Shown piece by piece: positions 12,227-62,338 of a DNA stretch of 64,000 nt; the first letter of the stretch is position 1, and each line of letters opens with the position of its first letter. The stretch is from an uncultured Chloroflexia bacterium (GTDB taxonomy: Bacteria; Chloroflexota; Anaerolineae; Anaerolineales; UBA4823): NCBI GenBank assembly GCA_963765565.1, contig CAVXWV010000010.1:197046-261045 (forward strand), given 5' to 3'. Below the pieces are notes generated by a model. It did no database searches, was not told where the DNA came from, and worked only from the letters and a program-made list of their open reading frames with translations. Both the position numbers and the translations under genes were made by a program.

Positions 12227-15200
12227 ATGTCAAACAGCGAGCTGAGCATTCTGAAAATCAAGCCGACAATCTTTCTCAAAAAAGCGGATTCTGGTCTGGC
12301 GCAAAAAGTCGAAGTGACGCTGCTGAACTCCACGCCGCAATCGCTGAATGTACTGCTGGAGGTGCGCGGCCTGGGGCTGCCACAGGAGTTCCCCCTGAGC
12401 GCCTCGCCGGGTCCCTCCACCCACGAGATATTCCTCCCCGAGATCGCCCAACCTCAGCCAATCGAGTTCGTCCTGCGCCACGGAGACGGCCTTGCCGATT
12501 TCCACAGCCTCGACTACCAGCCTCCCCGGCGCTGGGTGGTCCACGTCGTCCAGACTTCGCACCACGATGTCGGCTATACCGACCTGGCTTCGACCGTCCT
12601 CCAACAGCACGACCGCTGGCTGGACCAGGCCCTGGACTACGCCGCCCAGGCGGACTCTTTCCCCGAGGATGCCCAATTCCGCATCGTCATTGAGCAGGCC
12701 TGGTCGCTCGACCACTTCCTGAAGCGGGCCTCGCCTGGTCGCGCCGCCAAAATGCTCGAGCTGCTGCGCCAGGGGCGCTTCGAGCTGGCGGCGCTCTTCG
12801 GCAATCTCACCAGCGAGCTCTGCGGTCACGAGACGCTCGTGCGCGCTCTCTCCCACAGTTTGCGCCTGCAGCGGCTGCACGGCATCCCCCTGACCTCGGC
12901 AGAGCACAACGACATCCCCGGCATGAGCTGGGGTCTGGCGCGCCTGCTCAGCGACGCCGGCATCAAGATCTTCATCCCCGGGCTGCCGCTCTACTACAAC
13001 TGGGGCAACCTGGGCATGCAATCCTTCTGGGACCAGCAGGCGATCTTCGGTCACGACGGGCCGGGCGCCTTCTGGTGGCAGGCGCCCTCGGGCAAGAAGC
13101 TGCTCTTGTGGTGCAACAACAGCGGCTGCGGCGGCGACTGCCGGGCGGACCTGCCCGGGCTGGCTGAGAAGCTTCAGGCCTGGGAGGACACCGGCTACCC
13201 CTACTCGGTGATGCGCTGGCCCGTCATCGGCGCCGAGCGCGACAACTCGCCCTATATCGCCGGGTACAGCGAGCACATTAAAGTCTGGAACGCGCAGTGG
13301 GCCTTCCCACGCCTGGTCTGCAGCACCAATGCCCGCTTCTACCAGGACTTCGTGCAGCAAATCCCTGGCGACCTGCCGACCTGGCGCGGCGAGCTGCCCG
13401 GGCAGGATTACCCGGTGGCTGCGGCCTCGACCGCGAAAGCCACTGCCGTTAACCGTGGCAACCATGTTGGCGCGCCCGCTGCCGAGAAGCTGGCTGTTTT
13501 GGCGGAGCTGCTGGCGGGCAGCGAATACCCGAGCGAGCTGCTCTTCGACACCTACGCGGAAATCCTCTGGCACGACGAGCACACCTGGGGGTTCCTCTTC
13601 CCTGCAGGGCCTGCAGTGGACGTTGCTGAAGCCGAGAAAGCCCTGCACGCCTACCGCGCCGCTGCCCACATCCACCAGGTCTTCGACAAAGCCCTCGCCC
13701 GGATTGCAGACCAGGTCAGCCTGGGGACGGGCGATTACCACCTGGTGGTCTTCAACCCCGCCGGCATGCCGCGCACGGGCCTGGTGCGCGCCCCGCTGCG
13801 CGAGAACGACAACTGCGGCGGCTCGATCCACGCTGTCCCGCCTGAAATTGACTCGCACGGCTCAGGCTACCTGAAAGGTGTGCTCCTGACCGATCGCTGG
13901 CACCTCAACCTTCCGCTAGAGCTGATCGCCGGCAACTTCGACCTGGTGGATGTCACGAATGGGCAACCCGTGCCCTTCCAGGTCATCGAGCTCGAGCCGG
14001 GCGATCCCGTTCCCTTTGCCAGCCAGCGTGCAGGATTGGGAGCGGGCACTGCCCGCCTGGGGTCGTTCGAACAGCCCGCCGGCATCCGCCGTGACCTCTG
14101 CTTCGTTGCCCGCGACCTCCCGGCCCATGGCTACAAGACCTATCGCCTGGCGCCTCGTCCTGCCGCAGCGTCCCCCAGGGCGACTACGGCTCCGGGTGAA
14201 CCGGACAAGCTCGTCATCGAGAACGAGTTCTACCGCGTTTCGGTGGACAGGCAGAGTGGACGTGTGTTGCAGGTGTTCGACAAGATGAACAGCCTCAGCC
14301 TCCTCGATCCCGCCTGCCCGCATGGCCTGGGCGAGCTGGTGGTGCGCTCGCCGCTGCATCCCGGCGAGTTCCTGCTCGAGCGTAGCGGGGCGCGCCTGGT
14401 CCTGGATGGTCCCATTGTTTCAGCGATCGAGATCACCGGCAGGGCGCACGGTCACCCGCAGGTGACCGTGCGCCTGAGCCTCTACGCCGGGTTGGCGCAT
14501 CTTTATCTGGATGTGCGGGTACTCAAGGACGCCTCGCCGCTCCTGGACGCCCAGCTTGCCTTCCCCTTCCAGGTCGACCAGCCGGCGTTCCGCTATGAGA
14601 GCGCTCTCAGCGTCATGAGCCCCATCCGCGACTACTTGCCCGGCTCGTATTCCGACGCGGTCACCGTCCAGAACTGGGTCAAGGTCAGCGGCGCCGGCAG
14701 GAGCGTCCTCTGGTCGAGCCTGGACGCCCCGGTGGCGGGCCTGGGCGGCCTGTGGCCGGGCTACGTCTCACCGGCGCACCGGGCGCTGGTCGACCCGGCT
14801 ACCTTTCACCCGCCCCTGGCCGAGCAGGATTTGAGCCGTGGCTGGATCTATTCGAAAGTCTTTTACAATAACCTGGGCACCAACTTCGCCGCCTCCCAGG
14901 TCTGCGATGTCCTCTTTCGCTACGTGATCGCCTCTGCTGAGGGGGATGTCGGTGATGCCCAGGCGGCAGCCTTTGGCTGGGAGGCGGTCACACCCTTCCA
15001 CCAGGTCTTCACCGGCGGCAAGCCCAGGCAGGGGACCCTGCCGCCCTCCGCCAGCCTGGTCGAGCTGCAGAACCCGCAGGTTGTCCTGCTGGCTTTAAAG
15101 AAGGCCGAGGACGGTGCAGGCTACGTCCTGCGCCTGTGGAACCTGGCGGATACACCACAAACCACGCGCCTCCACTTCCCCAACTTGAAGTTGAAAGCTG

Positions 15201-50948: not shown

Positions 50949-52456
50949 ATGAACGTTTACGACGCGCAAGGGAAATCAATCGGGCTCGCTGAAAGCGTCG
51001 GCCGTGGTGGGGAGGCCACTGTTTACCGCGTGCGCGGCCAGACGGGCTGGCTGGCAAAGATCTACGAGCAAGGTCCTCGCCCGAATTACGCCGAAAAGCT
51101 GGCCTGGATGATCGACCACCCGCCCGAGAATCCCACTCGCGCGATCGCCCACTCCTCGCTGGCCTGGCCCACCGGCTTGCTGTACGATTCGAAAGACAGG
51201 CTGGCCGGGTACATGATGCCGCATATCCACGCCGCCGTTCCCATGCTGGACGTCTTCAACCCGCGCCGCCGCCAGGCGACCCTGCCGCGTTTCGACCGGC
51301 GCTACCTGCACCGCACCGCCCGCAACCTGTCTGCCACGCTCAGCGCTCTGCATGCGCGCGGCTACGTGGTCGGCGACCTGAATGAGAGCAATGTGCTCGT
51401 CACCCCCTCGGCCCTGATCAGCCTGATCGACACGGACTCGTTCCAGGTTCAGGAAGTGCTTCCAGGTACAGGCAGGCATGGCAAACAAATCGTGTTTCAC
51501 CCTTGCCCGGTCGGCAAGCTGGAGTACACCCCGCCTGAGCTGCATGGCCAGGCCATCGGCAGCATCGTGCGCCAAGCCAGAGCACGATGCCTTTGCCCTG
51601 GGCGTGCTCATCTTCCAGCTCCTGATGGAGGGCAGCCACCCCTTCCGCGCCCAATGGCTGGGCAGCGGCGACCCGCCGCCCGTCGAAGCTCGCATTAGCC
51701 AGGGCATTTTCCCTTACGCAGCGATCCCCGACTCAAGGGTCCGCCCGCCCAAAGGCGCCCCGGACCTCAACCGGCTGCATCCGGCCCTGGTCGAGTTGGT
51801 CTTTCGCTGCTTCATAGACGGGCATACGGATGCGCGGCAGCGCCCTCTTCCCGAGCAGTGGGAGCAGGCTCTGGCCACGGCTGAAATTGCCCTGGTGCAG
51901 TGCCCGAACAGCCACCTGTACTCAAATCACCTGAGCGTGTGCCCGCATTGCCGGACAGCAGCAGCCACCTCGAAGACAGATGCTGCCAGGCAGCCGGCCT
52001 CTGCGCCCGCTGGCGCCCCCCAGAGCACTCCTAGGGCCTCTTGGCGCTCTCCTGGCGTCTCCCAGCGTTCTTCTGGGACAACCCAGCGATCTCCTGGGAC
52101 CCCTCCTGCAGGACAGAAGCCTCCAAAACAACAATCAAAGCCACGGACGCAACCTCGGACGCAACCGCGTCCGCAATCACGCCCAGCAGGACCAAATCCA
52201 GCTTTCCGCAGCCGCCGGTCCTCTTCAACCAACCCGGGTTTCAACTGGCAGGCATTTATCGCTTCACGCATGAATGCTCCCTGGCCCCGGGCTTCTTATC
52301 CCTCCGGGGTAGCTTACCCCACCGGGGCACCTTACCCATCAAGCCCGCCTTCACCCCCACCTTCCCGGCCGTATCCTGGGGCTCAGCCCTGGCGCGGGTT
52401 CACATACCATCCTGGAAGCGTGCAGAGCCTGGGTCAGCCCGCGCCTCTCGAAAAGC
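50949..52456 (+). CDS. Ser/Thr protein kinase-like protein with zinc-ribbon and Pro-rich tail, one frame break near 51575
   Basis: Track ORFs 50949..51698 and 51478..52935. GRGGEATVYRV..WLAKIY, GYVVGDLNESNVLV, IDTDSF, then KPEHDAFALGVLIFQLLMEGSHPF. CPNSHLYSNHLSVCPHC follows, then P/Q/S/R-rich sequence to about 52450. Confidence 0.7.
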
Positions 52457-52459
52457 GTT

Positions 52460-53092
52460 TTGGTTGGCGGCGGGCTGGGCGCCCTGATCGGAGCCTTGAT
52501 CGGTGGCCTGGCCGGGTTGGCAAGCGCCTCGCTGGGCGAGATCGCGGCCTGGACCCTGCTGTGGGCGCTGGGCGGGGCGGCAGCCGGCGTGTCGCGCGGC
52601 TGGAAGCCCGGTTACAGGATGAGCATGTGGGTCGACCGGAATATTGGCTGGCACCGCTTGCTGCCGGTATTTGGTTTGCTGGCGGGCGCGATGCTCGGGA
52701 TGCTCTTAGGATTTATCATTGGCTGGTGGGCGATCATACCGGTGTTTGTGGGTATGTTCTACGGGGCGCGCCTGGGGAAGCGGGCCGGGCACAAGGTAGT
52801 CGTAATGGGCAGCCGCATTGGCTGGGACCGCCTGTGGGCCGGGTTCAGCGCGGGGGTTGCCGCCCTGGTTGGATTGAGGATAGCCGTCTGGCTGGGTGGG
52901 GGTCCCGTGGGCAGCCTGGTCGCTCAGGGCGCTGATTCGCTATCCGCCTGGCTTTTAGGAATGCTTTCAGGGAGCGCACCAGACATGCTGATAACTGCCG
53001 TGGTCAGCGGCGCGTTGTGCGGTGGGCTGGCCGGCGCCGTTACGGGTGTCCTCACCGATCTCGTCGCTCGCCTCTCCGGCCTGGTGGATTGA
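52460..53092 (+). CDS. Glycine-zipper-rich membrane domain (separate gene or C-terminus of the kinase via a frame break near 52455)
   Basis: 210-aa ORF with only a TTG start. GGGLGALIGALIGGLAGLA and several further G-x3-G helices. Its frame is open from 52313, and the kinase frame loses protein-like character exactly here. Confidence 0.55.
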   Translation: MVGGGLGALIGALIGGLAGLASASLGEIAAWTLLWALGGAAAGVSRGWKPGYRMSMWVDRNIGWHRLLPVFGLLAGAMLGMLLGFIIGWWAIIPVFVGMFYGARLGKRAGHKVVVMGSRIGWDRLWAGFSAGVAALVGLRIAVWLGGGPVGSLVAQGADSLSAWLLGMLSGSAPDMLITAVVSGALCGGLAGAVTGVLTDLVARLSGLVD

Positions 53093-53527: not shown

Positions 53528-54604
53528 ATGAACACCTTAAATACCAGGATGAAGATCATCCTCATATTTGCTTTGATTCCGCTGCTGGCCCTCGCCGGCT
53601 GCCAGCCTGCCCCTGCCTCAGCGCCGCCAGCTACTTCAACCCGCTTGCCCACCGACACGCCAACTCCAGATCCTACACCCACCCAAGGGGCAAAAGCTAC
53701 GCAGCCTGCCCCTGCTTCTTTCCATGTTGAATGTCAACCTGGCCTGAAAGGGAAAATTATTTTTAGTGTGTATATTAATCACCTCGCGTCGTGGTACGAA
53801 GTCAACGCCGATGGTACTGGGCTGAGAGGGTTGCCTGGCCCGTGGGGAGATGATATTTACTGGTCGCCAGATGGCAGTCAGGTCGCATTTACCGATGGCG
53901 ATCTCTACGTTAGGCATATCGATAGCTCCGAGCCAACCTTGCTGATGGAAAAAGCCGAATTCCCGAGCTGGTCGCCGGACAGTCGCAGGATTGCCTTTCA
54001 AAAGGATGATGCCATCTATGTCGTCAACATCGATGGAACGGGGCTGACCGAGTTGGTACCGAATGGGTATTGCCCGATCTGGTCGCCAGATGGTGGGAAG
54101 ATTGCCTTTTCTTCGATATATGCAGCTGTTTGTGGATCTAAGTTTTATGTTGATCTATATGTCATGAACGCTGACGGCTCTGGAAAACCCGTATTGGTCG
54201 TACCAGGGCAATCGATGCTGATTGCTTGGTCACCGGATGGGAAACAGATTGCCTACCTTATTGATGATCTGATCGTGGTGAACGCTGATGGCTCGAACAA
54301 AACCTTTGTAAAAGAGGATTTAAATTCTATCAATGTATTTTCCTGGTCGCCGGATGGCTGCAAGATCGCTTATGCGGGAGGTAATGGGCTTTCTGTGATC
54401 ACTCTCGACGGTTCTGGCGAAACCGAAAAGGTAGATAGTTTTCCTTATTTTGCCTGGTCTCCCGATGGCGAGAAGATCGTCTATTCTTTAAATTCACATA
54501 CACTCGGGATAATTGGCGCTGATGGCAAAACCAGGATTAATAACTTTATTATTACTCCCGGGGGTGGGAGTACTCAAATCGGCGGCTATATCTGGCTTCC
54601 ATGA
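53528..54604 (+). CDS. PD40 (TolB-like) beta-propeller lipoprotein
   Basis: Track ORF 53495..54604; ATG 53528. Lipobox LLALAGC and six WSPDG-type blades (WSPDGSQVAF, WSPDSRRIAF, WSPDGGKIAF, WSPDGKQIAY, WSPDGCKIAY, WSPDGEKIVY). Confidence 0.85.
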   Translation: MNTLNTRMKIILIFALIPLLALAGCQPAPASAPPATSTRLPTDTPTPDPTPTQGAKATQPAPASFHVECQPGLKGKIIFSVYINHLASWYEVNADGTGLRGLPGPWGDDIYWSPDGSQVAFTDGDLYVRHIDSSEPTLLMEKAEFPSWSPDSRRIAFQKDDAIYVVNIDGTGLTELVPNGYCPIWSPDGGKIAFSSIYAAVCGSKFYVDLYVMNADGSGKPVLVVPGQSMLIAWSPDGKQIAYLIDDLIVVNADGSNKTFVKEDLNSINVFSWSPDGCKIAYAGGNGLSVITLDGSGETEKVDSFPYFAWSPDGEKIVYSLNSHTLGIIGADGKTRINNFIITPGGGSTQIGGYIWLP

Positions 54605-54658
54605 CTGCACGGACGACCGGACGTACGGACGATCTTTGTCCGCAGTGTCCGCCTTGCC

Positions 54659-54934
54659 TTATTGGCAATCCGTGCACAGCTTCCAGACCTGGGCGCCGGC
54701 GGGTTCATTTCCTCCGCCAAAATACAGGTCGCCCTTGAATTCGACCGTTGGGTTAAAGTTTATTAAATCTGGGTTGCTATTGCCGTGGCTGTCAGCCTTC
54801 ACCTGGCTCCAGGTCTCGCCATCCGGGGAATAGTACAGGTTGACCCCGGATGCCTCGGATACATTCGCAAACAGGTTGCCGTCGTATACGAACAGGGCGC
54901 TGAAGTTTAAGATTTGAAACGCGAGTTCAGACAA
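54659..54934 (-). pseudogene. Possible C-terminal fragment of a beta-propeller protein
   Basis: 91-aa ORF with no credible start or upstream part. YYSPDGETWSQV...GDLYFGGG resembles propeller blades. Confidence 0.25.
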
Positions 54935-55014
54935 GAGTTCGGACTAAGTGTAGATGTTTCCTCCGTGTTCGTCAATTGTCCGAAAAAGACCCCTCTTGAT
55001 TAATAGTATCGTTT

Positions 55015-55026
55015 TATGATATCATA
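55015..55026. promoter_or_regulatory. Perfect 12-bp palindrome TATGATATCATA just upstream of hicA (candidate HicB operator overlapping -10)
   Basis: Read directly. Preceded by TTGATT at 54997-55002. Confidence 0.4.
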
Positions 55027-55031
55027 TACTT

Positions 55032-55286
55032 GTGGATAACAGGCATCGCAGGACATTAGCTGCCATTTATGAGAGACCTGATAGAGCAAATATTGCCTGG
55101 AAGGATATTGAAGCGCTTCTTAATGGGTTAGGTGCTGAAATATCAGAAGGCAGCGGTTCCAGAGTGCGGGTTTCTCTCAGGGACGTCAGGGCCGTTTTTC
55201 ACCGGCCTCATCCACACAAAGAAACAAGTAAAGGAGCCGTGAAATCCGTTCGCAGGTTCCTGGAAGCAGCAGGAGTAAAGCCATGA
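55032..55286 (+). CDS. hicA: HicA-family type II toxin
   Basis: 84-aa ORF (GTG start). IAWKDIEALLNGLGAEISEGSGSRVRV...FHRPHPHKE matches the HicA pattern. Its stop overlaps the hicB ATG (ATGA). Confidence 0.75.
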   Translation: MDNRHRRTLAAIYERPDRANIAWKDIEALLNGLGAEISEGSGSRVRVSLRDVRAVFHRPHPHKETSKGAVKSVRRFLEAAGVKP

Positions 55287-55612
55287 TGGAGTATAAAGGG
55301 TATATCGGTAAAGTTGAGATCGACGATGAAGCCGGGATTTTATATGGGGAAGTGATTAATATTCGCGACGTCATCACGTTTGAAGGTGAAAGCGTCGAGG
55401 ATGTCCAGAAAGCATTCCATGAGTCGGTGGACGATTACCTGGCCTTCTGCGCGGAGCGCGGTGAAAGCCCAGAAAAACCCTTCTCAGGCAGGTTTGTGGT
55501 GCGGTTACCGGCCGAATTGCACCGGAAGGCCTATATCAAGGCAAAATTGGTCGATAAAAGTCTGAACGGTTGGGTAAATGAGGTGATCGAAACAGCGCTC
55601 CGAGGTGAGTAG
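55283..55612 (+). CDS. hicB: HicB-family type II antitoxin
   Basis: 109-aa ORF. YKGYIGKVEIDDEAGILYGEV...FEGESVEDVQKAFHESVDDYLAFC plus a C-terminal RHH-like FSGRFVVRLPAELHRKA. Confidence 0.85.
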   Translation: MMEYKGYIGKVEIDDEAGILYGEVINIRDVITFEGESVEDVQKAFHESVDDYLAFCAERGESPEKPFSGRFVVRLPAELHRKAYIKAKLVDKSLNGWVNEVIETALRGE

Positions 55613-55729
55613 GGCACCTTTCGAGTTGCCTCAGCGCGTCCAGGAATAAATACCGAGTAGCCATCCACCCGCAATAGTTATCGCCTGCTAAAGCAAATAT
55701 TCCACAATCGATGGATGGTAAGGAGAGCG

Positions 55730-55966
55730 ATGGACTTTGAGAACTGTATTGGTGCTGACTTCGACAATGTCTCACAGCGGCTGGTCTACAACTACATTGC
55801 CACTCAGCCCGACTTCCGCTCCATCCCCACGGTTTACCGTGGCAAGCTCGTCAAGATGTGCTACTATTTCAAGTACATCCACACGCGCGAGCTGACCCAT
55901 ACCATCCTCGAGGCGGCGACGGCACTGTACGCCTGGGTGGACAACCACTACGAGGTTGCCACCTGA
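55730..55966 (+). CDS. Hypothetical cassette ORF
   Basis: Track ORF 55715..55966; ATG 55730 after aaggag. Its 3' end overlaps the attC-like site at 55939-55999. Confidence 0.4.
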   Translation: MDFENCIGADFDNVSQRLVYNYIATQPDFRSIPTVYRGKLVKMCYYFKYIHTRELTHTILEAATALYAWVDNHYEVAT

Positions 55967-55999
55967 GCCCCAGACCGCCGCTGAACCCGACCGTTAGCC
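55939..55999 (+). other. attC-like recombination site 1
   Basis: GGACAAC...GTTAGCC, 61 bp. The right arm ccgccgctgaacccgaccGTTAGCC is nearly identical to that of the 57993 site. Confidence 0.55.
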
Positions 56000-56043
56000 C
56001 GCTGCCTCCGTGCGGGGATCTCGAGAGTACAAGAGGAGTCAAG

Positions 56044-56697
56044 ATGAGAGTGGGTCCAGGCGAATCCCAGGTTGGCCGGTGGAAGGTCATTCGGATAAGC
56101 GAGTTGATCGAACAGGTCCTTGGTGCAAATCCCGCGACGACGCAGGGCGCAAGGATTGTGGCTGTTGATGGCCGTAGTGGCGGGGGCAAGTCCACATTGG
56201 CAAACCAGCTGCATAGGTATCTGGCCAATTCCACGATCGTACACACAGACGACGTAGCCTGGCATCACTCGTACTTTGGCTGGAGCGAGTTGTTGATCGA
56301 CGGCGTGCTGCGACCCGTTCGCTCCAATCAACCCGTGAACTTCCGCCCGCCGGCCTGGGACAGTCGTCGACGCCCGGGTTCGATCTCAGTAGACGCAGGC
56401 TGTGAAGTCGTCATTGTTGAAGGTGTGGGTGCGAGTCGCCTCGAAGTCTGGCCATGGCTGACGGCATCTATCTGGATCCAATCGGACATGGATGAGGCGG
56501 AACGTCGCGGCATTGCCCGCGACGGAGGCACTGAAGAGGCCAGACGGTTTTGGATGGATTGGATGAGAGAGGAAAACGAGTTCTTGGCGGAGCAACAGCC
56601 GTGGAGGCGTGCGTCGGCGATTGTGAACGGCACGCCAGCCATGGATTATGACACCGAGCAGGAAGTTGTCGTGGCTGATACGAGCCGTCAGGCGTAG
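56044..56697 (+). CDS. P-loop NTPase/kinase (uridine-kinase-like) cassette ORF
   Basis: Track ORF 55858..56697; ATG 56044 after aggag, 45 nt after the GTT core of attC 1. Walker A VDGRSGGGKSTLA. Confidence 0.65.
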   Translation: MRVGPGESQVGRWKVIRISELIEQVLGANPATTQGARIVAVDGRSGGGKSTLANQLHRYLANSTIVHTDDVAWHHSYFGWSELLIDGVLRPVRSNQPVNFRPPAWDSRRRPGSISVDAGCEVVIVEGVGASRLEVWPWLTASIWIQSDMDEAERRGIARDGGTEEARRFWMDWMREENEFLAEQQPWRRASAIVNGTPAMDYDTEQEVVVADTSRQA

Positions 56698-56714
56698 TAG
56701 GAAAGGAGTAGATC

Positions 56715-56951
56715 ATGGTGGTTACGCACTTGATAACACATGGACTATTCTTCGCGGTCATTTTTAATGGCTATCTCCTGCTTGTCATGGTCTTGACCAG
56801 CCCGCGCGTTTGGGGCTATACCGATTATCCAGAAGTGATAAAAAACAAATATAGGATGGTATTTCTAAAGTTGTGCCAGATGGCAAACACTTTATTCAGA
56901 ATCCGCCTAACCAACCCGTTAGCCGGACAGACCAAGTCTATTATCCTATGA
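56715..56951 (+). pseudogene. Truncated small membrane ORF
   Basis: The first ~45 aa look like a TM protein (HGLFFAVIFNGYLLLVMVL...WGYTDYPEVIK). The remainder runs through an attC remnant and looks non-coding. Confidence 0.25.
56905..56924 (+). other. Collapsed attC remnant (GCCTAAC-N6-GTTAGCC)
   Basis: Inverse core and core are separated by only 6 nt. The next ORF starts 43 nt downstream. Confidence 0.4.
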
Positions 56952-56966
56952 CCAGGAACGGCACAG

Positions 56967-57518
56967 TTGGAAACCTTCACAGAAACTAAAGCATTGGTAG
57001 AAAACCCGCATTACCAGGATCAAAGGCAGAAAAGCCTGGCTGGTCTCCACGATGGAATGATCGATAAACCCATAATTGAAGTGATCAACGCTTTTAACAA
57101 ACTGCCTTGTTGTTTCACACTACAATGCTGCTATGGACATTTTGTCTACGGCGGCCAGAATGATCCTCATAACCTCGAACCCTTGCCACTGACAGATACC
57201 ATTGCCAGAGTGGAGTACAGGATAGCTTACATCGCCCTCTGCATTGAAAACAGTGATTTGGGAAGGATGCTTTTTGATGCTTTGAAGGGAATTGCGGTTA
57301 TTGACCCAGAGAACATCCAGTTCTGTTGTGCAGAATGGTTTTGGGAAAGACAGCTCAATTCTTATGCGTTACAGGTCGAACCAGACAGGTTCAAGTTTGA
57401 AGACAAGGCTATCGTTGATTACGAAGAGGCTTTGAAAATTGAAAAGATACGAATTGAGTTCTTTGTTCGGTTAAAGGAGTTGCTTCAAAAACAGCAATGG
57501 AGAGATATGTCCGGCTAA
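56967..57518 (+). CDS. Hypothetical cassette ORF (183 aa, Cys-rich)
   Basis: Uninterrupted ORF (TTG start). No family recognised. Its stop lies inside the inverse core of the next attC. Confidence 0.45.
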   Translation: METFTETKALVENPHYQDQRQKSLAGLHDGMIDKPIIEVINAFNKLPCCFTLQCCYGHFVYGGQNDPHNLEPLPLTDTIARVEYRIAYIALCIENSDLGRMLFDALKGIAVIDPENIQFCCAEWFWERQLNSYALQVEPDRFKFEDKAIVDYEEALKIEKIRIEFFVRLKELLQKQQWRDMSG

Positions 57519-57572
57519 CAACGGGTTGCAGCCGACGTTGCTCCGCTATGCGGCTGAAACCGACCGTAACTA
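57513..57572 (+). other. attC-like site 3 (core degenerate: GTA instead of GTT)
   Basis: GGCTAACaacgggttgcagccgac...gcggctgaaaccgaccGTAACTA. The left arm is almost identical to the 57993 site. Confidence 0.55.
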
Positions 57573-57574
57573 GC

Positions 57575-57697
57575 GCCCAACAACGGCTCCACCTGACCGC
57601 CTCCGGCGGATGTACGGGTCGGCACTTTACCAACTTTCATGCTATGATGATTTTGTCGTCCCGTCAATCCGGCGGCAGGTGATCCAAACCGTTAGGC
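57575..57697 (+). other. attC-like site 4 (long, 123 bp)
   Basis: GCCCAACaacggctccacctgac...ggcaggtgatccaaaccGTTAGGC. Both arms are paralogous to the 59786 site. Confidence 0.55.
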
Positions 57698-57751
57698 GTC
57701 ACGGTGCCGTTACACGAGAATTCGAACGACAACCACAAAGGAGAACTTGCG

Positions 57752-57991
57752 ATGAAGACAATGACCTGCAGAGAGCTGGGCGGAGCGTGCGACTTGGAGT
57801 TTCATGCAAACACCTTCGAAGAGATGGCTCAGATGAGCCAAAACCACGGCAAGGAGATGTTTCAGAAGGGCGACAAGCCACATATACAGGCCATGGGCGA
57901 AATGAGAAACCTTATGCAATCTACGGACGGAATGGCCAAGTGGATGGAGGGCAAGCGGAAAGAGTTTGAAGCCAAGGCCGACAACAAATGA
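57752..57991 (+). CDS. DUF1059-family small protein (cassette ORF)
   Basis: ATG 57752 after aaaggag. MKTMTCRELGGACDLEFHANTFEEMAQMSQNHGKEMFQKGD is the DUF1059 pattern. Confidence 0.7.
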   Translation: MKTMTCRELGGACDLEFHANTFEEMAQMSQNHGKEMFQKGDKPHIQAMGEMRNLMQSTDGMAKWMEGKRKEFEAKADNK

Positions 57992-57992
57992 C

Positions 57993-58056
57993 GCCTAACA
58001 AACGGTTGCAGCGGACGGTCCGCTGCGCGTCCCGCCGCTGAACCGGAACGTTCGGC
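57993..58056 (+). other. attC-like site 5
   Basis: GCCTAACaaacggttgcagcgg...ccgccgctgaaccggaacGTTCGGC. The arms pair (cggttGcagcgg / ccgctgaaccg) with one bulged base. Confidence 0.7.
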
Positions 58057-58089
58057 GGCTTGAAGTCGACTTATAGTCTGGAGATGAAC

Positions 58090-58500
58090 ATGCCACGAAA
58101 AGCGAACAGTAAATTCAATGACATCCTGCCTGGTGGTGTTGACGAATACATAGAAAAATGCCCGAAGGACGTACAAGCCCGATTGACGGACATTCGGATT
58201 GCGATACAGGCGGCAGCTCCTGGTTCCACTGAAACGGTCAGCTATTTTCAGATGCCTGGATATTTTTATGAAGGATACGATTACAACGGAATGTTCGCTT
58301 GGTTTAGTTTTAAGAAACCCCATGTGCGTTTGCATGTTCGACCTCCAGTGCTGGAGGACAATAAGAAAGACCTTGGGGATTACGCCTATACAAAAGCTAT
58401 TATCAGCTTTCCGGCGAACAGGGCGATACCAAAGACATTGGTTAAGAAGCTGGTGAAAGCAAGCATTAAGGCAATGAAGCAGAAAAAGGAATCCGCATAA
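58090..58500 (+). CDS. DUF1801 (YdhG-like) protein (cassette ORF)
   Basis: Track ORF 58060..58500; ATG 58090 lies 8 nt after ggag. VDEYIEKCPKDVQARLTDIRIAIQAAAPGSTETVSY is the DUF1801 N-terminal pattern. Confidence 0.7.
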   Translation: MPRKANSKFNDILPGGVDEYIEKCPKDVQARLTDIRIAIQAAAPGSTETVSYFQMPGYFYEGYDYNGMFAWFSFKKPHVRLHVRPPVLEDNKKDLGDYAYTKAIISFPANRAIPKTLVKKLVKASIKAMKQKKESA

Positions 58501-58554
58501 CAATTCGCTCAAGCCGACACGCCTACGGCGCGCGGCTGAGCTTTTATGTTGGGC
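58495..58554 (+). other. attC-like site 6 (aadA-type 59-base-element look-alike)
   Basis: GCATAACaattcgctcaagccgacacgcctacggcgcgcggctgagcttttatGTTGGGC, 60 bp. Confidence 0.75.
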
Positions 58555-58557
58555 TAG

Positions 58558-58686
58558 GCGCAAAAACATGATGCTGCCCATTCATACATCCAGGTGATGG
58601 AAGACAACGCCCCGGCCCTGGCGCTATATGCTAAACTGGGCTACATAGTTGCTTATGATTACTGGTACCGAGTACCGCCAACCTGA
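58558..58686 (+). pseudogene. C-terminal remnant of a GNAT acetyltransferase
   Basis: Only ...[32 protein letters not shown] is present, immediately after an in-frame TAG. Confidence 0.55.
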
Positions 58687-58715
58687 ACATTCCTTCTTCA
58701 ATCAGGAGATTTCCC

Positions 58716-59660
58716 ATGGCCTTCTTGTCCTTACCCCAAAACCTGCGCGAACGCCGCCTTCAACAGCCTTCCGGAAAAATTCGCATGGTGCTGGATACCG
58801 ACACTTACAATGAAATTGATGACCAGTTCGCTTTGGTGTACGCCCTGCGCTCCCCTGAAAAACTGAGCGTAGAAGCCGTTTACGCCGCTCCATTCACCAA
58901 CGATCGCTCTACCGGCCCCGGCGACGGCATGGAAAAGAGTTACGACGAAATTTTACGCCTACTCGACCGGCTGCACCTTTCGCCCAATGGCTTCGCCTAC
59001 CGCGGTTCAACCGTCTACCTGGGGAGCCAACCCGAAGAAAGCCCCGCCGTTCTCGACCTGATCGAACGAGCGCTGGCCGCCCCCGAGGATGACCCGCTCT
59101 ACGTGGTAGCCATCGGAGCGATCACGAACGTCGCCTCGGCGCTGATGTTAGAACCAGAAATCATCCGTAAGATCGTAGTTGTCTGGATGGGTGGTCACCT
59201 CCAGGCCCTGCCCCATACCATCGAGTTCAACCTGATGCAAGATGTCCCCGCTGCCCGCGTCATCTTTGATAGTGGCGTACCGTTCGTGCAGGTGCCAGCC
59301 TTGGGGGTAGCATCACACTTGTTGACCACAAAAGCCGAACTGTTCGAATCCATTGCCGGGCGCAACCCCGTGTGTGATTTCCTGTACGAGCGCTTCTGCG
59401 AATACAGCATCGATCACTTCGCCTGGGCCAAAGAAATCTGGGATGTGGCTGCCGTCGGCTGGATGATCAATGAAAGCTGGGCACCTTCCCGCCTCGTCCC
59501 CAGCCCACGCCTGCTCGGTGAATGGCAGATGGATACTGGGCGAGGCCACCTGCACTTTGAGCCGGCCCCCGAACGCCACCTAATACGTGAATTATGGTCC
59601 TTACAACGCAACCCGATCTTCCGCGACTTGTTCATCAAGTTACAGGCAATCCCCGCGTGA
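58716..59660 (+). CDS. Nucleoside hydrolase (IUNH family)
   Basis: 314-aa ORF with the N-terminal aspartate cluster VLDTDTYNEIDDQFAL. Confidence 0.8.
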   Translation: MAFLSLPQNLRERRLQQPSGKIRMVLDTDTYNEIDDQFALVYALRSPEKLSVEAVYAAPFTNDRSTGPGDGMEKSYDEILRLLDRLHLSPNGFAYRGSTVYLGSQPEESPAVLDLIERALAAPEDDPLYVVAIGAITNVASALMLEPEIIRKIVVVWMGGHLQALPHTIEFNLMQDVPAARVIFDSGVPFVQVPALGVASHLLTTKAELFESIAGRNPVCDFLYERFCEYSIDHFAWAKEIWDVAAVGWMINESWAPSRLVPSPRLLGEWQMDTGRGHLHFEPAPERHLIRELWSLQRNPIFRDLFIKLQAIPA

Positions 59661-59785
59661 TAAAAAAATCACCTTTGCCAAATGTGGTCCTCTCTTTTTC
59701 TAGAGCAAATCATGCTCAAATAGTGAATTGGTGTTCCAGCGAAAGTAACCGAATGCCTGATAACCACAGTACAAAAGCAAAACCC

Positions 59786-59897
59786 GCCCAACATCGGCCT
59801 CCACCTGACGCTGGGGATTCTCCCGGTTTTTGTGTATTTATGGCGTCTCGAATTTGGTTCGCATCCCACCCAGCGCAGGTGAAGCTGGGCGTTAGGT
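59786..59897 (+). other. attC-like site 7 (long, 112 bp)
   Basis: GCCCAACatcggcctccacctgac...gcaggtgaagctgggcGTTAGGT. Confidence 0.55.
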
Positions 59898-60038
59898 GCT
59901 TGACACTTGTTATAGTAGAAAATTCATTCCGAGTCCAATAGATATTACCCCCGAACAGGTTTCCCAAATCACAGAAGTGCTCTCCATGTTTCTGCAAAGT
60001 TCCGGCAAGAAAAATTCAGTAAACAAAGAGGAATAATC

Positions 60039-60657
60039 ATGAAAATAGCGATATTTGGTGCAACAGGTGGAACCGGCGTCGAACTTGTCAAACAGGCTCT
60101 CGAGCGGGGGCATTCGGTCACCGCACTGGTGCGCAACCCTGCGCAATTGGCAGATAAAAGTGATGGTCTTACGGTCATGACTGGAGACATCCATGATTTA
60201 GCGAGTGTTGAACGCTGCATTCAGGAGCAGGACGCAGTGATCTGCGCTTTGGGTGCAAGAGACTTGAAGAAAACGATGATCCGCACCGAGGGCACGGTCA
60301 ACATCATTAGAGTGATGAAGAAGAACAATGTCAGGCGCTTGTTCGTTGTCTCTGCGATGGGTGTTGGGGAAAGTTGGGACAACCTTTCGATGTTCAATAA
60401 ATTTCTATTTGCCATCTTGATGAAAAGCACGCGGGAAGATCATGAAGCGCAGGAAGCCGCAGTGAAAGAAAGTGGCTTGGATTGGACGATCATCCGCCCC
60501 AGTGGACTGGTAAATACGCCCCGCACCGGTGTTTACAGTGTTGGGGAAAATATCGCCGCCAAGACTTCTAAAATCCCCCGCGGATGTGGCTGATTTGATC
60601 CTGAACGATCTGGAAAAGCGGGCACTGGTTCACAAAGCCGTCACGATTACGAATTGA
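60039..60657 (+). CDS. NAD(P)H-binding protein (flavin/biliverdin-reductase-like atypical SDR), one frame break near 60575
   Basis: Track ORF 60039..60593 (MKIAIFGATGGTGVELV). After a C5 run the neighbouring frame continues ADVADLILNDLEKRALVHKAVTITN*. Confidence 0.7.
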
Positions 60658-60697
60658 GAGAACCATTATCGGAAAATACGATATTCGGATGGAAGAG

Positions 60698-62338
60698 CTA
60701 TGCAGCCGGCACGGCGCCGTTTTTCGCCAACCTCCGCTCGATGTTTTTGGACGTGGGCGTGATCGACAAACCGCCCAGGGCAGTGCATCTCAGCTCAGCC
60801 GGCAGACTCTTGCCGACCCTGTCCATCGTTTCGATCACTTCATCCAATGGGATAACCGCATCATAATTCGCCAGTGCCATATTCGCACAAGCCAGCGCAT
60901 TACTGGCGGCCAACACATTTTTGCCCAGACAGGGCACTTCTACCCGGTTCGCTACTGGATCGCAAACCATTCCCATGATATTTTGCAGTGCCATGGATGC
61001 GGCATCGAGAGCTTGTTGGACGGATCCATTGGCTAAAGAGACCAGTGCGGCTGCCGCCATGCCGGAGGCGGATCCGCATTCCGCCTGGCATCCACCGACC
61101 TCCGCCGCAAAAGTTGCGTGAGCCGCAATGAATATTCCTACCATGCCTGCAGCCAGCATGGCTTTCGCCATATCGTCTACGGATAATCCCATGGCACTGG
61201 CTGCGCCAATGCAGGCGCCTGGAAGCCCGCTGCAAGATCCGGCAGTTGGCGCTGCAACGATTACGCCCATCGAACTTTTTATTTCCATCATGGCGGTCAC
61301 ATACAGGATGATTTGGTTCAGGATCCCGCCATCCAGGAGGCGGTGGTGATTGAGCTGTGCCTGGAAAGAGCCCGATTGGCATCCCAAGATACGATCCTGA
61401 TAGGTGGTGCCTTCAATGCCGGCCAGGATCGACCTTTGCATAATCAGGATTATTTCCCTCATTCTTTCCTGCACTTGCTCCTGAGATATGTTTCCCCGGG
61501 CGCTCTCATAAAGGCAAGCCAGTTCCCACAGACACATATCCTTCCCGGCATTATATCGAAGCATTTCGTCACTGGTTATAAACGGCACCGACATTTGGCG
61601 GCGTGACAATACGGGCAAAACTGGTGAGAGCAACTTCAGATACTTGATTCTTTGTCGAGAATACAACCAGGAGACGGCTTCCTCATCCAGGAATTTCCGG
61701 GCTTTGATCTCGATAATCTGGCCCTCCGTCACATTCAGTGAAAGAATATCGTCAAACTCGATAAGTTTTTTTAGTTCCTCAAGGTGTATCTTGCTCGATC
61801 GATCGAAATAGATCAGGGTTTCATAATAATCGCCTGCGATTGACACCGCTGCGCCGTCAATTTCCCGTATTTCGATCATTCCGCCGCCTGTGGAAATGGC
61901 AGTAAGTGTGTGCTGTTCGTCCAAATTCTTGAGTGTCAATTTGTAGGTATTAGGGTGTTCAGCGCCAATATCATGAATTTCAAGGGTTATCTTAATTCCA
62001 GCTTCTCGGAGCGCCTGGTCAGATTGTGCCAGCCTGTCATCCGTGGTATCCCATCCAAGTAGTCCTCCCATCAAGCCCATATCAGACCCCTGACTGAGGT
62101 GGGTGGTGGCCAATGAGCCATTCGTATCATATTCGACCAGTACTTCCTTGATCATTCCACCCATCAAATCCCTGGCAATCCGGCCGATCCTCAGAGCCGC
62201 AGCACAGTGCGAACTCGAAGGTCCGCGCATCACGGGTCCGATCACATCATTGAAGATACTGGGATAACTGCCTCGGAGCTCTTTAATAGGCTTGTTCGAG
62301 TCGTCTGCCCGTGGATTTTTTTTGCGATTTTTCAGCAT
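60698..62338 (-). CDS. sdaA: Iron-sulfur L-serine ammonia-lyase (single-chain beta+alpha)
   Basis: Track ORF 60698..62422; ATG 62338 lies 1 nt after the upstream stop. SIFNDVIGPVMRGPSSSHCAAALRIG and the C-terminal alpha domain are present. Confidence 0.85.
   Translation of the reverse strand: MLKNRKKNPRADDSNKPIKELRGSYPSIFNDVIGPVMRGPSSSHCAAALRIGRIARDLMGGMIKEVLVEYDTNGSLATTHLSQGSDMGLMGGLLGWDTTDDRLAQSDQALREAGIKITLEIHDIGAEHPNTYKLTLKNLDEQHTLTAISTGGGMIEIREIDGAAVSIAGDYYETLIYFDRSSKIHLEELKKLIEFDDILSLNVTEGQIIEIKARKFLDEEAVSWLYSRQRIKYLKLLSPVLPVLSRRQMSVPFITSDEMLRYNAGKDMCLWELACLYESARGNISQEQVQERMREIILIMQRSILAGIEGTTYQDRILGCQSGSFQAQLNHHRLLDGGILNQIILYVTAMMEIKSSMGVIVAAPTAGSCSGLPGACIGAASAMGLSVDDMAKAMLAAGMVGIFIAAHATFAAEVGGCQAECGSASGMAAAALVSLANGSVQQALDAASMALQNIMGMVCDPVANRVEVPCLGKNVLAASNALACANMALANYDAVIPLDEVIETMDRVGKSLPAELRCTALGGLSITPTSKNIERRLAKNGAVPAA

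Follow-up and report, generated by a model that had tools for sequence, protein, structure and literature searches.

We found that positions ~55975-59897 of a 64,000-nt stretch of contig CAVXWV010000010.1 (hereafter, the window) form, with a probability that we put at about 0.9, a chromosomal integron gene-cassette array without a neighbouring integron integrase, that is, a cluster of attC sites with no integron integrase (CALIN). Five attC sites, all on the + strand, occur within 57513-59897, and this 2.4-kb cluster was recovered by two covariance models (R1 and R2), neither of which was built from window sequence. The locus thus fits CALIN as defined in the literature, with two or more attC sites on the same strand, detected by a covariance model and lying <4 kb apart (Cury et al. 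2016, IntegronFinder; PMC4889954). A covariance model made independently of the window recognises the sites as attC-like, covariation is seen in their stems, and no fewer than two discrete cassettes recur elsewhere. An earlier note, made by reading the letters of the window, had already proposed a CALIN at 55730-60657; its interpretation is supported, with corrections, and its span is reduced to a demonstrable extent of only ~55975-59897, with a half-site at the left end and no attC after the last reductase gene.

The attC calls rest on purpose-built models, which stand in for the curated model of IntegronFinder. R1 was built only from attC sites of class 1 and class 2 integrons on plasmids, 18 different ones, collected from plasmid cassettes found through blastn with the site at 58495 and from three further intI1-linked arrays; its alignment of 60 positions was annotated for the R-box and L-box pairs and for the two canonical bulges. 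With this model the whole 64 kb was searched on both strands with filters off and a rough model calibration. The earlier note had named such a search as its check, and an empty result as grounds for giving up the idea; R1 returned five significant sites, every one of them on the + strand, in line with the shared orientation that the note had described. R2 is a broader model whose training set comprised 31 R1 matches, taken from loci on plasmids and in metagenomes; a few of these were duplicate or wrong-strand matches, and none was a window site. It recovered the same five sites at 22-38 bits and nothing new. The best R1 match outside the array, on either strand of the rest of the window, reached 11 bits, and five unrelated control loci (92 kb) gave no R1 match at E<=1. 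Genuine attC sites from outside the training set scored 23-36 bits, a range like that of the window sites. Two general searches were uninformative: Rfam holds no attC family, and its gathering scan of the window returned one tRNA only, while an inverted-repeat search of the window missed the attC arms because these are imperfect and bulged.

All five sites align end to end with the 60-position model, at lengths of 59-123 nt, and they display the architecture expected of attC (inverse R''/R' cores, paired L''/L' boxes and a loop, within ~57-141 nt), with some deviations in the cores. Across the five, 89% of the R-box/L-box cells pair, compensatory changes occur in four pairs, and none of the 500 shuffles or of the slid controls reached the covariation score of the set. 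The model alignments place, in silico, a single unpaired base at both canonical bulge positions in every site, and the extrahelical bases are predicted to lie on the L'' arm once the bottom strand is folded. Bottom-strand folds of the sites at 57575, 57993 and 58495 were more stable than those of shuffled sequences (z -2.4 to -3.4), and those at 59786 (z -1.7) and 57513 (z -1.2) were not clearly better than shuffles. Folding the bottom strands in search of extrahelical bases, as the earlier note had advised, gave two single-base bulges on the L'' (3') arm in the minimum-energy folds of both 57993 and 58495. The arms of 57993, which had been described as pairing with a single bulged base, therefore carry two.

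GC-rich imperfect hairpins at the ends of open reading frames (ORFs) could also be repetitive extragenic palindromes (REP) or the related bacterial interspersed mosaic elements (BIME), or intrinsic terminators, in either case unrelated to integrons, and the element at 59786-59897 indeed holds a terminator-like hairpin followed by a T-run. These data disfavour the explanation, and we regard it as highly improbable. The five elements lie on one strand in one 2.4-kb cluster, with no further copies on either strand of the 64-kb window or in the 92 kb of control loci, so that the genome-wide scatter of the palindromes, which the earlier note had named as evidence against an array, is not seen within that reach. 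They were detected by a model trained on real attC sites only, and one of them is 75% identical to the dfrB2 attC; homology to other loci begins and ends at core sites, and a related array adjoins an integron integrase. Promoter-like and terminator-like matches are in any case no commoner in the region than in shuffles, terminator-like sites being rarer than the shuffle expectation (3 vs 7.5).

Taking the elements as attC sites, we assigned each to its cassette. The attC of the DUF1801 cassette (58495-58554, +; R1 39.9 bits, E 6e-8) matched, in a blastn search of plasmids, only the 3' ends of cassettes (sat2 of Tn7-type class 2 integrons; dfrB2 and gcu of class 1). Its likeness to the aadA-type attC, which the earlier note had pointed out, is borne out by a global identity of 68% with the aadA1 attC and of 75% with that of dfrB2. 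The same plasmid search with the sites at 57993 and 57575 returned noise only, plus one weak match to a Methylocalor plasmid. The attC of the DUF1059 cassette (57993-58056, +) scored 36.6 bits with R1 (E 4e-7), and its bottom strand folds at -20.3 kcal/mol (z -3.3). That of the ORF183 cassette (57513-57571, +; R1 30.6 bits, E 1.6e-5; R2 33.9 bits) is homologous to the attC sites behind the same gene in two other loci, L007 and L030. A long attC of 123 nt without an ORF follows (57575-57697, +; R1 20.2 bits, E 0.008; R2 24.9 bits, E 8e-4; z -2.4); it starts 3 nt after the 57513 site and hence defines an ORF-less cassette of ~126 bp. The last recognisable attC, 112 nt long (59786-59897, +; R1 18.9 bits, E 0.017; R2 22.0 bits, E 0.004), is of the same R''/L'' type as the 57575 site. 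The terminator-like hairpin and T-run mentioned above lie in its loop, at 59810-59827, 3' of the nucleoside hydrolase gene.

The earlier note had counted six full attC-like palindromes on the + strand, and 5/6 were found where it placed them. The remaining candidate, 55939-55999, forms no imperfect palindrome (fold z -0.33; R1 3.4 bits) and is also unsupported by R2; no attC-type fold of its bottom strand was obtained. Only its 3' half, the remnant at 55975-55999 (+; L'-R', ending in GTTAGCC), is attC-like: positions 55978-55995 are identical to the L'-R' arm of the 57993 site over 16 specified bases, a count that no shuffle matched. The collapsed site reported at 56905-56924 (+; R''-N6-R', GCCTAAC CAACCC GTTAGCC) does exist but is statistically marginal (on both strands, R1 14.4 bits, E 0.25). 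The ORF183 cassette has its 5' boundary at the R' of this site, which is exactly where homology to L007 starts.

Comparison with other loci shows that the cassettes behave as discrete mobile units: the ORF183 cassette occurs in L007 and L030 and the DUF1801 cassette in L027, and both recur in unrelated metagenomic arrays with different neighbours. For either one, the matching stretch opens at or close to the upstream core site and stops at the attC of the cassette itself. Identity across the R' boundaries drops from 84-96% within cassettes to about 30% outside. The metagenomic contigs L007 and L008 carry a 90% (amino acid) ORF183 homolog in an array of small + strand ORFs. The window and L007 share 93.6% nucleotide identity from the core GTTAGCC (window 56918) through ORF183, 66% in the attC, and 29-32% on both flanks. 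About 2.6 kb from the ORF183 cassette, L007 encodes an integron integrase (TIGR02249, 331 bits vs a 265-bit cut-off) that is 45% identical to IntI1 and ungapped through the IntI-specific segment. In L027, a 91% (amino acid) DUF1801 homolog is followed by a 35.9-bit attC and the homology ends at the cassette limits, with 84% identity to the window inside the cassette and 33-38% outside.

A closer relative was found in L030, a 2-kb JGI contig (Ga0209254) that is 96-98% identical to window 55766-57566. The aligned part includes ORF83 (98% nucleotide identity), the half-site, the P-loop gene (96%) and ORF183 (96%) with its attC, and it lacks window 56719-56941, a 223-bp indel that covers ORF78 and the collapsed attC. 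L030 departs from the window exactly after CCGACCGT in the R' of the 57513 attC; past that point it carries a SnoaL-like ORF, where the window has the ORF-less attC and the DUF1059 cassette. A comparison of cassette content among related strains had been suggested in advance, and here it revealed a difference located at an attC core.

Some details of the L007 and L008 arrays may be recorded here. At 13158-14605 of L007, the integrase is short, at 263 aa, and the ORF directly upstream, a separate one of 216 aa, has a SAM-like N-terminal domain, so that this intI may be split. The array that L007 shares with the window is on the 3' side of intI. On its 5' side, L008 shows an attC-like match (14951-15000) and L007 an IS630-type transposase.

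Several points weigh against reading the locus as a cassette array, or against parts of that reading. The left part (ORF83, the P-loop gene and ORF78) is bounded by remnants only. The two long sites reach only modest E-values with R1 (0.008 and 0.017), under a rough calibration. The RYYYAAC/GTTRRRY motif, claimed for every site, holds broadly, but deviant cores are present at 57513 (R' GTAACTA), 57993 (R' GTTCGGC) and 58495 (R'' GCATAAC), the first of these being a decayed, non-canonical R' with GTAAC in place of GTT. Lastly, homologs of ORF183, DUF1801 and the P-loop gene were found without attC sites (L010, L012, L018-L020, L028 and L031, the last with a 77% homolog of the P-loop gene), in operon contexts; these genes are therefore not exclusively cassette-borne. 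In Chloroflexota metagenome-assembled genomes (MAGs; L018-L020), the ORF183 family occupies an attC-less operon with Mrp-like FeS_assembly_P/ParA, DUF364, MoeA, NifU and radical SAM genes. This operon may represent a native source of the cassette, and the company of genes in it may hint at a role related to metals or cofactors.

No integrase accompanies the array in the window, as the earlier note had stated. A tblastn search of the 64 kb with IntI1 and with one environmental IntI, and a two-sequence IntI profile run against all six-frame fragments of the window, detected no tyrosine recombinase or fragment of one (best E 0.04 over 15 aa); these searches take in 55 kb on the left of the array and 4.1 kb on its right. 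The minus-strand ORF at 54659-54934 is a truncated F5/8 type C gene and not an integrase. An attI site cannot be recognised by sequence alone. With no intI in the window, the locus is not a complete integron (intI, attI and the cassette promoter Pc).

Each unit consists of a promoterless ORF, or of none, with an attC behind it, and the mechanism is the standard one of integrons. The bottom (-) strand of the attC can fold, according to the models, into an imperfect hairpin in which the R''/R' and the L''/L' boxes pair and two bases are extrahelical, and this predicted form would be the substrate of the IntI tyrosine recombinase, with cleavage in the conserved AAC/GTT triplet. The array would have been assembled by an IntI that either was once adjacent and was then lost or rearranged away, or acted in trans; if an IntI were supplied in trans, it could still excise or capture the intact sites (57575, 57993, 58495 and 59786). 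As there is no local IntI, trans supply is the only way in which the cassettes can move. Lacking a Pc, the cassettes would probably be expressed by read-through out of the hicAB promoter or else from internal promoters. The array is partly fossilised, given that decay is seen at several junctions: 55975 has only a half-site, 56905 a collapsed site and 57566 a GTAAC core, while the GNAT gene is 5'-truncated and the gene beside the array frameshifted.

Loss of intI, rearrangement and off-target insertion are the candidate origins, and two of them amount to separate explanations of the locus. The array could be a detached or distal part of a complete integron whose intI and attI lie elsewhere in the genome, separated by a rearrangement or carried on a different replicon, and act in trans. 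About half of the CALINs described by Cury et al. (PMC4889954) are in genomes or replicons that encode IntI, and rearrangement is among the origins listed there. That the cassette content of L030 begins to differ at precisely an attC core points to integrase-type events of fairly recent date in this lineage, and the truncated gene fragment at 54659-54934 would be a rearrangement scar at the left flank. Since no intI or fragment of it occurs within 55 kb upstream or 4 kb downstream, and the decay of several attC sites argues against ongoing selection for recombination, we consider a detached integron possible, though short of probable.

Off-target insertion of cassettes, a known route to CALINs, would instead require a transient integrase acting at secondary GTT sites of the chromosome, in a place that was never an integron platform. 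The 5' truncation of the GNAT gene falls exactly on the R' of the 58495 attC, which is the junction expected if a cassette was inserted into a GTT of a resident gene. Upstream of the array, however, there was no sign of a matching 5' GNAT fragment, and the backbone held in common with L030 is that of a stable multi-cassette array rather than of isolated insertions. This route appears unlikely to us.

Less likely still, the array may remain in use, with an integrase elsewhere in the genome exchanging cassettes with distant phyla, and with the ORF-less attC at 57575-57697 serving as a promoter cassette (TCGGCA-18-TG-TATGAT, in its loop) for downstream cassettes that have no Pc. Bearing on such exchange, the ORF183 and DUF1801 cassettes occur at 84-94% nucleotide identity in unrelated arrays, and their protein homologs include some named in Desulfobacterales, Verrucomicrobia and Proteobacteria. 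The promoter-like match itself, at 57619-57648 in the loop of the 57575 attC, is sigma-70-like (TCGGCA, an 18-nt spacer and a TG-extended TATGAT) and precedes the DUF1059 ORF by ~100 nt; the cassette that holds it might thus supply a promoter.

Turning to the genes of this CALIN, a Pfam search confirmed part of the cargo named in the earlier note (hicA, hicB, DUF1801, the nucleoside hydrolase and the reductase), while DUF1059 stayed below the cut-off, the P-loop kinase below threshold, and the GNAT call weak. The first cassette gene is probably ORF83 (55730-55966, +; 7 homologs), of unassigned function. It is followed by a P-loop kinase-like ORF (56044-56697, +) with sub-threshold matches to Pfam AAA_18 and other P-loop families and a match to NCBIfam PRK06547 (E 4e-24) that falls under the curated cut-off, and by ORF78 (56715-56951, +; no Pfam match), probably a remnant, whose span overlaps that of the collapsed attC. 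The cassette gene ORF183 (56967-57518, +) encodes a Cys-rich protein with 2335 homologs and no Pfam or NCBIfam match; the best 120 of these 2335 are 72-93% identical in amino acids, and the named ones include Chloroflexota, Anaerolineales and Desulfobacterales. Next come the DUF1059 ORF (57752-57991, +), a weak match (Pfam E 0.0018, 18.9 bits vs a 21.1-bit cut-off), and the DUF1801 ORF (58090-58500, +; Pfam E 6.7e-11; 1862 homologs). The 5'-truncated GNAT acetyltransferase fragment (58558-58686, +), a weakly supported stretch of 42 residues that covers the last 27 positions of Acetyltransf_1 (E 0.009), directly abuts the R' of the 58495 attC. An inosine-uridine-type nucleoside hydrolase ORF (58716-59660, +; Pfam IU_nuc_hydro E 1.3e-21) precedes the last attC.

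The gene that had been taken as the last cassette, an NmrA/SDR-like NAD(P)H-binding reductase (60039-60657, +; NAD_binding_10 E 1.5e-46 over 60039-60593), has the last attC on one side and the serine dehydratase gene on the other. Its C-terminus runs on in another frame (60529-60657), with a frameshift near 60580 that makes it a pseudogene. R1 found no attC over 59900-61400, and so none 3' of it; it is consequently not demonstrably a cassette; we describe it as a frameshifted gene beside the array.

On the left flank, the earlier note had pointed to hicAB as a possible stabiliser of the array. The pair itself is confirmed by Pfam (hicA, 55032-55286, +, HicA_toxin E 1.7e-12; hicB, 55283-55612, +, HicB E 1.9e-18), with a promoter-like site at 54996-55025 ahead of it, but it is flanked by no recognisable attC: R1 gave no match over 54600-56100. 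The spacer between hicB and ORF83, tried as a decayed attC, was supported by neither R1 nor R2. Within it, 54 nt upstream of the ORF83 start, an R'-like GTTATCG (55676-55682) may be a decayed cassette boundary between hicAB and ORF83. Its counterpart in the alignment with L033 is the R' (GTTATGC) of the attC ahead of the ORF83 homolog there, a locus in which that homolog starts ~60 nt after a 33.7-bit attC and in which the array also carries HigBA and a PIN gene. Toxin-antitoxin genes were present in every related array (L007, L021-L024, L025 and L033), paralleling hicAB beside the window array; they are of the MqsA-like/PemK, HicB-like, BrnT/BrnA and HigBA plus PIN kinds.

Left of the hicAB promoter region, on the - strand, the 54659-54934 fragment (91 aa, 5'-truncated) encodes an F5/8 type C (discoidin) domain and looks like a rearrangement or insertion scar next to the block formed by hicAB and the array. 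Further left, 51478-53092 has a GC content of 64-69% and contains a long ORF rich in Pro, Arg and Ser, which other ORFs overlap on both strands, then a Gly/Ala-rich membrane-like ORF without a Pfam match. The organism is tentatively Anaerolineales-like (Chloroflexota). The closest protein matches to genes of the window are 93-96% identical. The nearest genome by the flanking serine dehydratase, an Anaerolineales MAG, has no array at the equivalent place; as this enzyme is only 68% identical between the two, the taxonomy is tentative and the synteny comparison uninformative.

The locus is an ordinary further example of a well-known kind of element and opens no new question. Integrons have already been recorded in Chloroflexi/Chloroflexota (PMC4889954, PMC8618304), and CALINs are taxonomically broad (PMC4889954). 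The window adds one more small integrase-less cassette array, in a poorly studied uncultured lineage, and shows that cassettes of unassigned function (ORF183 and DUF1801) circulate at high nucleotide identity among unrelated arrays. It also captures, through L030, how strains have gained or lost cassettes at an attC core, illustrates array decay in its half-site, collapsed site and mutated core, and is a clean example of attC arrays being recognisable from a reading of raw sequence.

Set beside the attC sites of class 1 and class 2 cassettes (aadA1, sat2, dfrB2 and catB3 type, ~60 nt), the 58495 site shares the R''-spacer-L'' TAACAATTCGCTCAAGCCGAC, the 60-nt length and the bulge positions. It differs in its cargo, DUF1801 instead of a resistance gene, and in its chromosomal and environmental context. 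For the other four sites, no similarity to plasmid attC sites is detectable in the primary sequence, and only sequence and structure jointly allow them to be recognised. The collapsed site at 56905-56924 has the same 7+6+7-nt R''-N6-R' architecture as the reduced attC sites of fused class 1 cassettes, for which 20-nt precedents were found in L003 (3316-3335, after blaOXA-10) and in L005 (- strand, after aac(6')-Ib and aadA1), although taken alone the window site is below significance. A literature check on the term "collapsed attC" found nothing usable.

Sedentary chromosomal integrons, such as the superintegron of Vibrio cholerae, resemble the locus in being chromosomal, in holding cassettes of unassigned function and in having an associated toxin-antitoxin pair (here hicAB). 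The window differs from them in having no intI, attI or Pc and in that hicAB is not bounded by attC sites. Its five attC sites, of at least three sequence types, also contrast with the tens to hundreds of homogeneous repeats of such integrons and fall short of the more than ~19 highly similar attC sites by which they are defined. The closest agreement is with published CALINs, which likewise combine at least two attC sites (here five) on one strand, <4 kb apart, with the absence of a nearby IntI. The window array is likewise small, 83% of CALINs having <6 attC sites (PMC4889954), and its cargo is mostly of unassigned function and free of resistance genes. Nothing essential sets the array apart from published CALINs, and several of its junctions are visibly decayed.

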